Positions 1,406-32,280 of a stretch of DNA of 64,000 nt are shown here, piece by piece (position 1 is the stretch's first letter; every line of letters begins with the position of its first letter). The stretch comes from a virus. Location of the stretch: positions 628 through 64,627 of the IMG/VR virus record IMGVR_UViG_3300018890_000001; one strand, given 5' to 3'. The position numbers were made by a program, and so were the translations under genes. The notes beneath the pieces are model-generated. The model searched no databases. It worked only from the letters and a program-made list of their open reading frames with translations, and was not told the origin of the DNA.

Positions 1406-3081
1406 TGGCTGACACAAAACCGACAACCACCAGTCCGATCGCCCCACAGACTACGATCGCAGATCCGACAAAACCAGCTACTCCGACTGCTGGCACAGCA
1501 ACAACTCCCGCGACCGCAACGACACCAGGCGCAACACCAACTGGAGGCACGGCAGCAGCGCCTGCCAAACCAGCGGAACCCATGTATCCGAGCGTGGAAG
1601 ACATTATGTTTGTCTGTCCGACAGCCAAGAAAGAAAATGTTGTTAAAAACCTGTCAGGAATTGTCGAGGAGATGGCGAAAGCTGGTTTAAATTCAAAAAA
1701 TAATTTAGTTGGAATTGTTGCAACTATTCACGTAGAAACAGAGATAGATCCGTTTAATCCAATTGAAGAAATCGATGGTCCGCGTCAGGCAATACTGAAC
1801 GGTTACAAAGGTGGTGCTGATTTTTTTGGACGTGGGTATATTCAAATCACACATGATTATAACTATAGAGATGCAGGTAAAGGAATTGGACTAGGAGATC
1901 AGTTAGTTAATAGTCCAAAAATGGCATTACAGCCAGAAGTTGCAGCAAAAGTTACAACGTGGTATTGGAAAACAAATGGTGTAGATAAAGCATCTGATGC
2001 AGGAGATTGGAGACAAGTTCGTAGGCTTGTCAACGGTGGTTATAATCACTACGACAAATTTTTTGCAGCGGTTCAACGCGGACTTGAAAGATTCACTAGA
2101 GGAATTAATTCTACTGGCGCGATCAACATGGGCACGTCCTATGGTGCTAGCGATGTAGATACCGGGGGAGGGCAATCGCGAACGGTTGTTGCAACAGGAG
2201 TACAAGGTCAAGCCGACATACTTGCGTATGCGTTAAACCTCCACGCACGAGATCGCATGAACTCTCATGAATTTTATGCGGTACTCGATTGTGCAGCAGA
2301 TCCAAGAATTCTTGATTTAGAAGCGCAGAAAACTTTTGAATTAAAAGGAATGTCGAAGGATCTTGACGGCGTTTACACCGTTGACGAGGTGACTTTTTTG
2401 CCGTTGACTGAAACTGTGCAGGCGATCGTCAAAGCAAAACGTCCAGATCCAAAAGCCGGTGCAGCAAACGCTTTCTTGTTTAACGCGCAGGGATTAGATC
2501 CGAAAGCTGGGGCCGCAGCCGATACGAATTCTACACCAGGGCAACCGGGTTCTGTCACGAAAATAAATGGGGAAGTAAAACTGGGTGTTCCTTTCAAATC
2601 GCAGAACGACAACGCTTTCAATCCAGGCGGTGCTTGTAATGCAACCAGCTTAGCGATGGCCTTGGAATTTTTAGGTGTAAAAGGGAAGGGTCCTGGTCAG
2701 TTCGAGGATGAAATTTATGAGCAATTACAAGCTTCTGGTGTTCACCCAGGGACACCAGGAGCAATGGTTGATATCGTTAAAAAATACGGAAAAACAGACA
2801 ACCATAACGGCGTCGCAACAGACGACGAAATCAGGAAACATCTCGACAAAGGCAAACCTGTAGTAATACACGGCGATTTCACAGAGAGTGGTCACATTCT
2901 TTGTGTGATTGGCTACAACGCCAAAGGATTTATAGTTAATGACCCTTATGGTAAATTCTTAGGCTCAATCGGAAGCTATGACAACAACGCTTCAGGTGCC
3001 AGCAATCTACATGAATATGCCACTGTCGTTAATACATTCTGGCACCAAAACGGGACAAACTCAGCCCATTTTATAGAATAA
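1405..3081 (+). CDS. Multidomain peptidoglycan hydrolase: GH19 lysozyme/chitinase + possible hub-like segment + C39-like peptidase
   Basis: GH19 motifs FFGRGYIQIT...NY and VRRLVNGG. C39-like motifs VPFKSQ...ACNATSLAM...GHILCVIGY...VNDPYG. Coupled to the previous ORF by TAATG. Confidence 0.85.
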   Translation: MADTKPTTTSPIAPQTTIADPTKPATPTAGTATTPATATTPGATPTGGTAAAPAKPAEPMYPSVEDIMFVCPTAKKENVVKNLSGIVEEMAKAGLNSKNNLVGIVATIHVETEIDPFNPIEEIDGPRQAILNGYKGGADFFGRGYIQITHDYNYRDAGKGIGLGDQLVNSPKMALQPEVAAKVTTWYWKTNGVDKASDAGDWRQVRRLVNGGYNHYDKFFAAVQRGLERFTRGINSTGAINMGTSYGASDVDTGGGQSRTVVATGVQGQADILAYALNLHARDRMNSHEFYAVLDCAADPRILDLEAQKTFELKGMSKDLDGVYTVDEVTFLPLTETVQAIVKAKRPDPKAGAANAFLFNAQGLDPKAGAAADTNSTPGQPGSVTKINGEVKLGVPFKSQNDNAFNPGGACNATSLAMALEFLGVKGKGPGQFEDEIYEQLQASGVHPGTPGAMVDIVKKYGKTDNHNGVATDDEIRKHLDKGKPVVIHGDFTESGHILCVIGYNAKGFIVNDPYGKFLGSIGSYDNNASGASNLHEYATVVNTFWHQNGTNSAHFIE

Positions 3082-3530
3082 TGATGTTACACCCAGCCTT
3101 TTTTCAGATGCCATTGTTCGGAGATTCAAGAACAAAAAAAAGACCAGATCCTGCTGAAGTGGGTTGGCGAATTATAGGTTATTCGACTTACGGTGGATAT
3201 ACGCTAGTTCGCTGGAGAGTCAAATCAGAACCAAGTCCCAGAGGGAAAAACCCGAACGCGATCTTCTTGCGTCGCGACATTGAGGGCGACATGAACGATG
3301 GCGAAACGCTGTATCGAGGAATTCCACCCAACCACGAAGTTATAGGTTCTGCTTGGTGGCGGATTTCGTTTTACGACGAAACGCTCAAGCTCGAAGCGGC
3401 ACCTCGTGGTGGGATGGAGAATCCCTCGGTATGGAACCGTCCCGCATGGAAAGCGGGAGCGTTTGGTCTGTCAACCGCCACGGCTCGCGCTTTGCGAGAT
3501 CCGCTCAACTACGTTACTTTTGAACCCTGA
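3081..3530 (+). CDS. Hypothetical protein in the tail/lysis operon
   Basis: 149-aa ORF coupled (TAATG) to the upstream gene. Confidence 0.65.
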   Translation: MMLHPAFFQMPLFGDSRTKKRPDPAEVGWRIIGYSTYGGYTLVRWRVKSEPSPRGKNPNAIFLRRDIEGDMNDGETLYRGIPPNHEVIGSAWWRISFYDETLKLEAAPRGGMENPSVWNRPAWKAGAFGLSTATARALRDPLNYVTFEP

Positions 3531-16987: not shown

Positions 16988-17283
16988 TATTTGATTTTGA
17001 ATCGCATTACAAGCTTAGGGATTCCAAGAAGTTCTACCCCAGTATTGACAATTGATTCGTTGTACGTTTCGCGCATTCTTTCTACAACCGCTTTTCTAGC
17101 AAGTTCTAAGTAGTCGTGGGTTGAATAAGATCCGAAACCTTGTAGTGGTAATTTCGCAGAAGCATGGTGACAGGGTTCCCAGTAGTCACCAACAACAATC
17201 AGCTCATTTTCATTAGCAGCAAAAGTACACCCGGAGCATTTATAGATACCGTTGTGTTCCGTTACGTGGATAGTTGGTGGCAT
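16987..17283 (-). CDS. Hypothetical protein with Cys/His motifs
   Basis: 98 aa; CSGC and PCHH may bind Zn. Confidence 0.6.
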   Translation of the reverse strand: MPPTIHVTEHNGIYKCSGCTFAANENELIVVGDYWEPCHHASAKLPLQGFGSYSTHDYLELARKAVVERMRETYNESIVNTGVELLGIPKLVMRFKIK

Positions 17284-28714: not shown

Positions 28715-29093
28715 TGTGTTTCCTCCATTCTTCGTATTGAACCTTGATTTTCTCGGAATACTTGGCAAACAAACGTGAATCTCGCTGTGTCCATTCAAAT
28801 TCATTTCCGGTAATAAGCCCCTTTAGTAAATAAGAAGGGTACTTGCCAAGTTCTGGAATCGTACAGTTTGTGCGCCCTTGATAAAGGTGGGGATGTGCAA
28901 TACCGTTTTCGTCAACATAATCGCGATCGATGCGACGGATTACTTTTCCAATTATTTCACCAGAGGTGCTATGGCGCACAATATCTCCTGGTTGGTACAG
29001 ATACTGAGGGTCTGGTTCTGGTAGGGGCATATCGGCTTGACATCCCCACATCTTGCATTCTCGTGTACCACACGTTCGTTTGCAGTCTTTCAT
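28695..29093 (-). CDS. Hypothetical protein (Cys-rich N-terminus + SH3-like domain)
   Basis: ATGA overlap with the nrdJ stop; CKRTCGTREC and YQPGDIVRH. Confidence 0.6.
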   Translation of the reverse strand: MKDCKRTCGTRECKMWGCQADMPLPEPDPQYLYQPGDIVRHSTSGEIIGKVIRRIDRDYVDENGIAHPHLYQGRTNCTIPELGKYPSYLLKGLITGNEFEWTQRDSRLFAKYSEKIKVQYEEWRKHNETETE

Positions 29094-30256
29094 GTTTGTG
29101 GTTCCGACAATGGTATCAAGCACTTGTCGGAATCGCAAGCTGCTGGTCCTTCGACTTCCTCTGGCGAAGTGTACCTAGAAAGTGCTTTGTAGAAATCGTC
29201 GCAGGTGCGTCGAGCTTCTACTTCTTGGCAGAGACAGTCATAAGTTTCTCGGGTGATCGGTTGAAAAGGCATTCGGGGGAACGTTTCATATTCATCGAAG
29301 CGGGCGAGGATCGCTGCTGATACGTAACCTTCGTCATTTTGGATTGCATCAAAAATAGCTTTCGCTAAATCGGCAACTTCATGTTCTCGCACCTCAATTG
29401 TCGCTGAAGTGTTGTGGGTGGTGTAGTTTTTCTGCACATTCAGGTAGTAGTCAAGTTGGGCGGTTGCTGAAAATTGACTAATATCGATTTTTTCTACACC
29501 AGGTAAGTTGGCCCAGCTCACGGCAGTCGGAATTTCAATCAACCATTCAGTGCAGCGCTCATCAAACGGATCGTCGAGCAATTGTCCGTTTTCGTCTTTG
29601 TCGGATTGTGCCGGTACGACCGTATATCCGTACTCGATCGCAGCAAGGGCGATCGGATTGTTTTTGCCGATCGTAATCCTGCGAATAAACCACTGTGCTT
29701 TTGGCGGATGCCAACCTGGAGACGCACCTGTCAGCAAAGCTTTGCTGCCCGAGGGCTGGATCGTATTACATCGATTCGGACACTTCAACCCATGTTGATC
29801 GCAATAATCTCGCACCGTAGTTTCGACTGTTTTTCGCCAGCGCACTAAGTAAGCCGTTTCGATATCTCGATACAGCGTCCCAAAATTCCAACCAGATTCG
29901 TCAACGAGTTCATAATTGTCAACATAAATGTCGAGTAATTGGGAGATTTTTTGAACATTTTGCTCAACTATTGGTTGTGGATAAAAGTCTGGGCGACCAT
30001 CAGCAAACCATTGCAACCATTTAGCTCCTAGTGCATTGACACAGAAATCAAACCAGCCAGTAAAGGAAACTCCGACAATCGGATCGAGATCGCGACTGTA
30101 CTGATATAGTGGCTCTGCAAATTGGTGTTGAAGCAAAGTCGAAACGAGTAAGCCGCCAGCGTAAAAAGCAGTATCCTGTTCTTCTAAATTGAATGGATCA
30201 AGTTGGTTAAGGTGTACCTCAGAGAGATTACATAAAAAATTTGAGCCGATAATTTC
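29090..30256 (-). CDS. nrdJ: Class II (B12-dependent, monomeric RTPR) ribonucleotide reductase, exon 2
   Basis: EIIGSNFLCNLSEVH...VGVSFTGWFD...TIQPSGSKALLTGASPGWH...ACDSDKC. Confidence 0.95.
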   Translation of the reverse strand, partial: EIIGSNFLCNLSEVHLNQLDPFNLEEQDTAFYAGGLLVSTLLQHQFAEPLYQYSRDLDPIVGVSFTGWFDFCVNALGAKWLQWFADGRPDFYPQPIVEQNVQKISQLLDIYVDNYELVDESGWNFGTLYRDIETAYLVRWRKTVETTVRDYCDQHGLKCPNRCNTIQPSGSKALLTGASPGWHPPKAQWFIRRITIGKNNPIALAAIEYGYTVVPAQSDKDENGQLLDDPFDERCTEWLIEIPTAVSWANLPGVEKIDISQFSATAQLDYYLNVQKNYTTHNTSATIEVREHEVADLAKAIFDAIQNDEGYVSAAILARFDEYETFPRMPFQPITRETYDCLCQEVEARRTCDDFYKALSRYTSPEEVEGPAACDSDKCLIPLSEPQT

Positions 30257-30505
30257 CAATTTGTTATCCCAAGGGCTTTTTATCCTTTGGTTCTACAGAT
30301 TTAAGTTTTCTGTAGGTCGGCGTACTTTTTGTATGTATATTCTTGTTACATACCTCCGCACTCTTGCCAATTTTATATTCTCTTTCGAGGTTCAATTGGT
30401 ACGCTCTACGGTGTCATGAGTTTTTTGGCTCTCGTGATTACCTCGGAATTGGCGTTTCAGCTTTCTCCGATTTTGCGAAGTTTTTAACGTGAGGCAAAAT
30501 TATCT
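30257..30505 (-). ncRNA. ORF-less group I intron (249 nt) in nrdJ
   Basis: The 5' exon ends in U paired to G in P1 and the intron ends in G. P10 pairs GAUAAUUUU with the 3' exon GAAAUUAUC. P7 pairs GAGCGUAC with GUACGCC with a bulged A. Removal restores NPCG-EII. Confidence 0.9.
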
Positions 30506-31729
30506 ACCACACGGATTTAGACCTAATCGCGATAAGCGATGATCTAACTCTTTAACAGGCATTGACGGATAACCATCTTGCATCCATTTTCGAGATTCAC
30601 CGCGATCGTAGGCTTCTAAGAATGAGGTTCTAAGGAGTTCGTTTGTAAGTAAATCTACATTGCATCTCGCAACCGCTTCGCCACCCCATTGGATCGCTCC
30701 TTCACCAGAGCGATATTGTTTAGCAACAGATTCTTTGCATTCTTCAAGTGTGGGTTTATGATGAAATACAAGCGAGTGATTAGCCATTCTTAAAGCATCA
30801 CGCTTTGGATCAATACGCCAATTTCCTTCCGTATCTTGCCCCCAAAGATTGTCCTTAGCGGATGCTCCGATTTTGTCGTTATGATTGAACTGTCGAATTC
30901 CTGCTGTTCGCCTAACGTTTCCGGCAACAATTACAATTGCCGCTTCATCAATTAACAAACTGCACTCAACTGAATTCAATCTGCGCCCGATTGCCCCATT
31001 TAATATTAAAGCGCACTTATCAAACAATTCGGGTAGTTTGATAGGGTTGGAAATGCCTCCGAACCCCTTAAGCTTTTCGCCAGCAGGACGTACAGAGCCT
31101 AGTCCAATATGGACTTTGATTGGTTCGTTAGCCAGATAACTACAATCGAACGCTAGATTGATCAACGCTTGATATGCGTCCACCCAACCTTTGCGGCTAT
31201 CTCCAACCCAAATCACAGATGTTATTGAGTTGTTGATCTGTTTAGTTTCATTTTTTCGTTGGTGTGGTGCGTACTCACCAATTTCAGAGAAGATTTCAAT
31301 CTTCAGTTGATTGCGGACTATCGGCAGGCGATCGATACAATCTTCAGTTAGGACTGCGCCAGTGCCGCAACCTTGCATTCCTAAATCCATCAACAAACCA
31401 AAAACTTCCAAGGATGTCAGCTTTAAACTGGTGCAGTTGTAAGCTCCTGGGAAGTTTTCTGGTTGTTCTATCCATTCTCGGCCGCCTACCCAAAGCCAGC
31501 GACCGGACGATAGACATTTGAAATTATACTGTTGCTCGTACAATAGGTCGTACTCCTCTTCACTTAACTTTCCTAGCTTTGAAATACCATCAATTGTCCG
31601 ATCGCACACTTCTTTCCAGGTTTCTCGGACACCGTTGTTGTTGTGTGAGTAGGAACGAAAAAATACAAATGGGGCTGATGGTGCATTTTCTGGGAACATT
31701 GGCATAATTGTTATTTCCTTGTGTTTCAA
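30506..31729 (-). CDS. nrdJ: Class II ribonucleotide reductase, exon 1
   Basis: FFRSYS...ETWKEVCDR...SGRWLWVGG...AYNCTS...GCGTG...GDSRKGW...AGNVRRTA...GLNPCG. Confidence 0.95.
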
Positions 31730-31731
31730 TC

Positions 31732-32280
31732 CTAGAATGGTAGCTCTAGTTGTACGTGATTGGATTTGAACCGTCGTTTGCGAGGTGATCCGGGTTGAAT
31801 GTTTTCCCAGCGTTTCCCACTTATAATTTTAGACACGTTAGAACCCGATATCTCGAATTTGTCGGCAATTTCTTTGTGTGTGTATTTACCACTTTGCCCA
31901 AGCTTTCTAATTTGCAAGATTTGCTTTTTGTTTAGCTTGGTATTACCAGATCCGATCTTTTTTTTGTGGGTTCCGTGTCTAATTTTATCAGCGGTGTTTT
32001 CAGCTTTTGTCCCCCATTTCAAATTGGTAAGACAATTGTTTAATCGATCGCCATCTCGATGACAACCTTCGTAACTAGAGTCTGGTGGGTATCCGTAGAA
32101 AGCGAGTAACACCACGCGGTGTAGTGCTTTTAACTTTCCCCTTATTCTGACATAAAAATAACCGTCACTGAGTATCCAGCACGGTTGTTTTTTTTCTAAC
32201 AGAAAAACATTTCCAAATATATCGACTTCATATTCGGGGGCGTATGGTATTGGTTTTTGGAATAATGCTGGTTGCAGCAT
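31732..32280 (-). CDS. Free-standing HNH homing endonuclease with C-terminal HTH
   Basis: LHRVVLLAF.G.P...CHRDGDRLNN.L.NL.WGT.AEN, followed by HKEIADKFEISGSNVSKI. Confidence 0.85.
   Translation of the reverse strand: MLQPALFQKPIPYAPEYEVDIFGNVFLLEKKQPCWILSDGYFYVRIRGKLKALHRVVLLAFYGYPPDSSYEGCHRDGDRLNNCLTNLKWGTKAENTADKIRHGTHKKKIGSGNTKLNKKQILQIRKLGQSGKYTHKEIADKFEISGSNVSKIISGKRWENIQPGSPRKRRFKSNHVQLELPF

Follow-up and report, generated by a model that had tools for sequence, protein, structure and literature searches.

The window analysed here, a stretch of 64,000 nt, belongs to an IMG/VR virus record of 199,763 bp that was found in biocrust metagenomes and probably represents a Microcoleus phage. 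Its minus strand carries nrdJ, a ribonucleotide reductase (RNR) gene that is broken into two reading frames. Exon 1 (30506..31729) is a 408-codon ORF ending ...GLNPCG, with AAT CCG TGT GGT as its last codons, whereas exon 2 (29090..30256) starts with EIIGSNFLCNLSE, opens GAA ATT ATC at 30256, and comprises 388 codons plus stop, ending with the CDSDKC pair. The two are separated by 249 nt, or 83 codons, without an ORF (30257..30505, minus strand). This insert splits the NPCGE motif between GGT (Gly) and GAA (Glu), and its coordinates are exactly those given in an earlier note made from the sequence. Nucleotide n of the insert corresponds to window coordinate 30506 minus n, nt 1 being 30505.

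Excision of the insert restores a contiguous GLNPCGEI, as found in intron-less relatives, and yields one NrdJ of 796 residues. We place the boundaries at GGU|A ... G|GAA, given that no other choice keeps the frame and restores NPCGE. When the joined product was compared with 16 related viral loci (tblastn), six were found to carry a single uninterrupted frame, aligning from about residue 2-12 to about 790-795. The motif GLNPCGEI(I/L)G..FHCNLSE is unbroken in these six and also in 10 of the cyanobacterial loci retrieved (e.g. L148, L171, L173, L175, L213 and L214). Read in frame, the insert encodes Arg and then a stop, TAA being its second codon, and with three in-frame stops in all it is not an intein. 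A transposon or MITE was discarded as well: inspection by eye revealed neither a target-site duplication nor a terminal inverted repeat at the boundaries.

Judged by its sequence, the host gene is a class II, B12-dependent, monomeric RNR of the RTPR type (NrdJ), displaying the NPCGE loop, the insertion domain, the C-terminal Cys pair and similarity to Lactobacillus leichmannii RTPR. Exon 1 matches the Pfam families RNR-II_ins_dom (PF21995) and RNR_Alpha as well as PDB 1l1l. Against 1l1l, a NrdJ family profile scores on either side of the junction (E 5e-44) and aligns GLNPCGEI with residues 404-411 of the L. leichmannii enzyme, which include Asn406, the thiyl-radical Cys408 and Glu410. The phage record yielded neither a class I nor a class III RNR, and ribonucleotide reduction encoded by the phage therefore depends on removal of the insert. 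To this extent, the earlier proposal that dNTP supply is splicing-dependent holds.

Anatomy of the intron RNA

The insert displays the elements expected at both splice sites of a group I intron. The 5' strand of P1 is provided by the exon sequence CGUGUGGU (30506..30513, minus strand), which covers the Pro-Cys-Gly codons and whose last U forms the U.G wobble. Its 3' strand, the internal guide sequence, is GCCUCACG at nt 11-18 (30488..30495, minus strand). Seven of the eight P1 pairs form, together with an AGA/UUU extension; U(-1).G11 marks the splice site, and the remaining position is a U/U mismatch. Immediately upstream, nt 2-10 (30496..30504, minus strand) constitute the P10 guide and pair with exon 2 bases 30248-30256 (GAAAUUAUC) over 9 bp. 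The in-frame UAA (nt 4-6; 30500-30502) sits inside this guide. Together, P1 and P10 realize 16 of 17 possible pairs, a value that shuffling the first 30 bases of the intron reached only once in 20,000 trials.

The catalytic core follows on the same minus strand. The 5' strand of P3 (nt 26-32; 30474..30480) pairs with nt 146-152 (30354-30360) and is followed by J3/4 (AAA). The P4-P6 domain (30410..30470) comprises P4 (nt 36-41/58-63), P5 (nt 45-46/53-54) and P6/P6a (nt 64-96). The 5' strand of P7 (30400..30406) consists of G100, a bulged A101 and nt 102-106; G100 pairs with C187, and nt 102-106 with nt 182-186 (partner strand 30319-30324), with G102-C186 as the putative guanosine-binding pair. 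P7 crosses P3, forming a pseudoknot. Between P7 and the 3' strand of P3 lies P7.1/P7.2 (30367..30399), in which P7.1 (nt 107-112/134-139) encloses P7.2 (nt 117-119/124-126) with a GAAA loop. The P8 hairpin (nt 153-175; 30331..30353) leads into J8/7 (AAAAA), and the hairpins P9 (nt 191-213) and P9.1 (nt 216-237), spanning 30269..30315, precede the terminal G, or omega G (nt 249; 30257..30257). Every element named in the earlier note, i.e. the U.G of P1, P10 with the 3' exon, the bulged A of P7 and the terminal G, is thus present. P5 amounts to only 2 bp and P1, P6a and P9.1 contain one mismatch each; the single-sequence fold of the intron outperforms that of shuffled sequences (z = -4.1).

Introns of subgroup IA typically have a P7.1/P7.2 element between P7 and P3', and usually a P2 as well. 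The phage intron has the former element and lacks P2, leaving 7 nt between P1 and P3, and its nearest proven relative belongs to IA2.

An intron family beyond the reach of RF00028

Related introns are widespread in phages. Searching phage records by blastn returned matches at 66-75% identity, and those inspected sit between pieces of split genes in phages of Firmicutes and other hosts, for example in a RecD-like helicase gene of Bacillus phage PJN02 or just 5' of the tape-measure gene of Arcanobacterium phage TPWB06. A pattern built on P7 and J7.1/3 matched at least 117 IMG/VR stretches (L024-L140), a few of these being chance matches. These copies and those in GenBank phages (L002-L007) make up a large family with P7 = GAGCGUA/UACGCC. 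At three loci (L004, L059 and L094), family introns adjoin an intron of the RF00028 type, and two nearby copies occur at L097 and at L116; no second copy was found in the phage record studied here.

The fold is backed by covariation across this family. From 24 relatives plus the window, RNAalifold recovered P3, P4, P5, P6, P7.1, P8, P9 and P9.1 unaided, with compensatory changes at 45 of 51 pairs, including all seven of P3. A covariance model built from the relatives (R1), which the window matches at 178.5 bits, was used to align 108 copies, 101 of them distinct (alignment A2). Among the distinct sequences, 94.1% of cells are paired; the corresponding values are 66% for shuffled sequences and about 40% after sliding the partner. 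Pair counts from A2 are inflated, since fitting to the model produced this alignment. The covariation score amounts to 0.642 versus 0.178. P7 is not part of this structure, into which it cannot be written as it crosses P3. All six P7 pairs form wherever both sides have letters (93-94 of the 101 distinct sequences), with compensatory changes at three positions. G102-C186 is invariant (93/93), and of the 97 distinct sequences that have a base at the bulge (position 101), 92 have A and 5 have C. The invariance of the 5' strand of P7 arises in part by construction, as this strand is fixed in the pattern used to fish for relatives.

Rfam model RF00028 does not report this intron. There is no match at gathering score in the whole window, and a search of a 551-nt stretch at E up to 10 gave no group I match either. 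A SAM_alpha candidate was dismissed, as it scored 20 bits versus a cut-off of 36 and covered only the P1 hairpin. The model also found none of 20 family copies tested, namely all 17 copies in 16 further loci and three more, while it did detect different, neighbouring introns in those same loci. The absent match is therefore a false negative that reflects a gap in the model, and it is no ground for rejecting a group I intron. The earlier note had listed RF00028 as a check and "no CM hit" as a refutation; the check indeed gave no match, yet the refutation is not valid. A recent survey likewise cautions that phage variants may escape the Rfam and GISSD models (PMC11878797).

R1 connects the family to an intron with experimentally established activity. 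In phage Twort, it matches positions 17015-17234 over its full length (E 5e-13). RF00028 detects three tandem introns in this region, and the R1 match is the second of them. Orf142 of Twort contains three group I introns, of which the second and third belong to IA2, with an exon of 23 nt between them (PMC10136302). Orf142-I2, for which self-splicing has been shown and the ribozyme structure solved, is the ribozyme used for structural work (PMC4275181). The phage intron family is therefore homologous to a proven self-splicing intron. Both the nrdJ intron and orf142-I2 are compact, ORF-less phage introns inside protein-coding genes, and they share the helix order P3-P4-P5-P6-P7-(P7.1/7.2)-P3'-P8-P7'-P9-P9.1 as well as the end ...AAUUG. 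They differ in P7, which in orf142-I2 resembles the RF00028 consensus, that intron being found by Rfam at 97 bits, whereas the GAGCGUA/UACGCC version of the nrdJ intron family goes unseen by RF00028. In addition, a Twort derivative is named pTWORT-P2 (PMC4275181), while the nrdJ intron has no P2, and orf142 is a virion gene, while the host gene here is nrdJ.

Shared introns, inteins and putative endonucleases at the nrdJ active-site loop

The phage NrdJ is about 60% identical to NrdJ of Microcoleus, Tychonema, Kamptonema and Lyngbya, and R1 matches 43 of 80 related nrdJ loci from these cyanobacteria. All 43 inserts are located at residues 408|409 (tblastn breakpoints). Thirty-five belong to a short form (about 253 nt, with scores of 178-200 bits), and the other eight measure about 1150 nt; most of the cyanobacterial copies score 190-200 bits. 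When 151 genomes of the class were sampled, 12 had an R1 match, every one of them in nrdJ and at the same site, and the three genomes searched whole contained one copy apiece. The phage and cyanobacterial copies (alignment A3) have the exon context CCG TGT GGT | ... | GAA AT in common, along with an identical guide sequence, an invariant UAA at nt 4-6 and the same helices, again without P2; differences in P3, P6a, P7.1, P8 and P9.1 are compensatory. Unlike the phage copy, the cyanobacterial introns are chromosomal, mostly 253 nt long, and have a shorter P10.

The introns of phage and cyanobacteria are 73-78% identical, as compared to about 60% at the DNA level for the exons. A co-conversion tract is not evident: in 60-nt bins, exon identity reaches 68 and 78% at the junction versus about 60% overall, an increase we discount since those codons are conserved anyway. 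None of the 16 related viral nrdJ loci contains the intron. In four biocrust DNA runs, we saw neither a contig skipping the intron nor an intron-less phage allele, though contigs drop rare variants. In runs X1, X2 and X4, short contigs of about 200-350x match only the conserved ends of the intron (30260-30298 and 30438-30498) and run on into a different nrdJ exon, ...AACCCGTGTGGT, the phage contig having a depth of 16x. These contigs probably derive from the nrdJ intron of an abundant host in the same biocrust samples. A second spike of high-depth foreign contigs covers a conserved stretch of exon 1 (window 30920-31015, runs X1-X4), and two joints in run X2 skip 114-121 nt (30820-30942). With 85% likeness, these probably stem from nrdJ genes of other organisms.

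Introns are not the only insertions in this part of the gene. In relatives, in-frame insertions of about 1.0-1.1 kb occur at NP|C, one codon 5' of the intron site, and others, likewise in frame, at H|C, eight codons 3' of it. Viral relatives have a further one near Gly-546, and cyanobacteria one near residue 274. Insertion-bearing loci include L022 (912-1949), L019 (about 860-1830), L015-L022 (about 2370-3500) and many of L146-L225; seven cyanobacterial loci have both the intron and the H|C insertion. The NP|C insert of L022 is an intein according to its Pfam matches (Intein_splicing and LAGLIDADG_3), a confirmation that applies to this insert only. The insertions at these four sites are in keeping with the statement in the earlier note that nrdJ more often carries inteins. 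We conclude that the active-site loop of nrdJ clearly exemplifies a homing hotspot in nature.

Potential endonucleases are associated with these introns as well. The long form of about 1150 nt (L155, 2851-4000; also L162, L163, L185, L186, L188, L190 and L215) contains a 344-codon ORF (2958-3992 in L155) whose weak matches to Phage_endo_I and NUMOD3 suggest a homing endonuclease belonging to the intron itself. The phage has a free-standing gene for an HNH_3 + HTH endonuclease (31732-32280, minus strand) that ends 2 nt before the start of nrdJ, and no second copy of this HNH gene was found in the phage record. Its product is 27% identical to an HNH ORF at locus L061 (7985-8386) that sits between two R1 matches on the same strand; these matches may be the halves of one intron of the phage family. 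The phage HNH protein is a candidate trans-acting homing enzyme.

With its shared intron, nrdJ is a candidate for an exchange of introns between the phage and its host; a review of bacterial introns notes little evidence for their horizontal movement (PMC3984707). A specific version of this scenario would have the phage acquire the intron by homing from a Microcoleus host and keep an ORF-less copy for endonuclease immunity. The PD-(D/E)XK/NUMOD3-type endonuclease of long-form hosts would cut an intron-less phage nrdJ, the ORF-less copy would make the only RNR gene of the phage immune to this host enzyme, and the adjacent HNH protein could act in trans, either to mobilise the intron or to exclude intron-less competitors. 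We regard this combination of events as speculative and, taken as a whole, rather unlikely. If true, the phage would be both beneficiary and vector of a host intron, and the locus would provide direct evidence for phage-mediated intron traffic in cyanobacteria.

Proposed splicing of nrdJ, rival readings and significance

In our view, the insert at 30257-30505 is most likely a functional, ORF-less group I intron of the phage type, resembling subgroup IA2, in phage nrdJ (probability about 0.9). The earlier note had already read it as an ORF-less group I intron splitting NPCG|E of a class II RNR, and the intron-less relatives, the 1l1l alignment, the covariation and the homology to Twort now bear this out. 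Boundaries, fold, covariation, kinship with a proven intron and the cyanobacterial same-site copies have been demonstrated, and from these we infer that the phage nrdJ intron is catalytic and spliced in vivo. Splicing would follow the standard group I pathway. The internal guide would form P1 with the Pro-Cys-Gly codons, so that U.G marks the splice site. An external guanosine, occupying its site at G102-C186 beside the bulged A101 in P7, would attack after the P1 U. The 5' half of the guide would then pair with the Glu-Ile-Ile codons to form P10, and the terminal G249 would enter the guanosine site, allowing ligation of the exons to ...CCG UGU GGU GAA AUU.... The ligated exons would encode the 796-residue NrdJ with an intact NPCGE loop, while the UAA at nt 4-6 would stop ribosomes reading unspliced RNA.

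One rival to a functional intron is a decayed one. If splicing had been lost, nrdJ would be a pseudogene and the phage would rely on NrdJ of its host; the single mismatches in P1, P6a and P9.1, the 2-bp P5 and the R1 score of the window (178.5 bits versus 190-200 for most cyanobacterial copies) could be read as signs of such decay. However, the P1 U/U mismatch is common to all cyanobacterial copies, and the core retains all of its helices, its G-binding pair and its bulged A, the terminal G being intact as well. Moreover, the exons remain open over 408 + 388 codons and keep the catalytic residues, which is unexpected in a dead gene, and we therefore consider decay improbable. Alternatively, the element might be a group I-derived ribozyme with another role, such as regulated or alternative splicing that gates NrdJ production on a signal, e.g. 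the guanosine level or the rate of translation. The in-frame UAA at nt 4-6, conserved in phage and hosts, is compatible with splicing being coupled to translation, a possibility considered for phage introns (PMC3984707, PMC2853384). Yet its position inside the P10 guide can by itself explain this conservation, and the RNA is built like an ordinary compact intron, with no extra aptamer-like domain, so that we give a gating function even less credence than decay.

A third possibility is that the two halves of nrdJ are translated separately and assemble without RNA splicing, for which nrdA of phage Aeh1 provides a precedent (PMC3653736). A TTG one codon 5' of exon 2, at which the ORF caller starts, and a GGGA 7 nt upstream of this TTG could serve the second half. 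However, the GGGAUAAC stretch is a conserved intron element across unrelated host genes, and what lies between the halves is a conserved, covarying ribozyme and not an endonuclease gene. The break would also separate the radical Cys-Gly from the catalytic Glu within one loop, and we rate separate translation as the most improbable of the readings considered. A functional group I intron thus remains our preferred reading.

Group I introns in class I and class III RNR genes of phages are classical. The T4 introns (nrdB, nrdD and td) and the nrdE/nrdF introns of Twort, SPbeta and the Bacillus cereus group resemble the one described here in their location at conserved catalytic sites of phage genes for nucleotide metabolism; they are self-splicing, some with free-standing endonuclease genes nearby (PMC3653736, PMC2248736). 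Their host genes encode class I or III RNRs or thymidylate synthase, whereas the phage copy reported here resides in a class II gene. A survey of 128 RNR-carrying phage genomes recorded two cases of split nrdJ, neither of them an intron (PMC3653736). Among cyanobacteria, the class II RNR gene of Nostoc punctiforme PCC 73102 has been published as carrying a group I intron (Meng, Zhang, Liu 2007, J Bacteriol; cited in PMC2853384 and PMC12702839). This intron resembles the phage copy in its kind and in the class of its host gene and is cited as a P2-less example (PMC12702839); it differs in carrying an insertion-sequence element. Given this precedent, the kind of intron was already known, and since a same-site intron is common in cyanobacterial nrdJ, the description of nrdJ as an unusual intron host gene in the earlier note was overstated.

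The phage nrdJ intron is thus an ordinary kind of mobile element. What is new is the phage copy, its orthology with widespread copies in Microcoleaceae and the blind spot of Rfam. These findings have practical consequences: automated gene prediction will split nrdJ into two broken fragments in this phage as well as in dozens of Microcoleus-type genomes, and the standard Rfam model misses a large family of phage introns. At the biological level, the phage and its likely hosts have one and the same intron in an essential gene, at an identical codon boundary.
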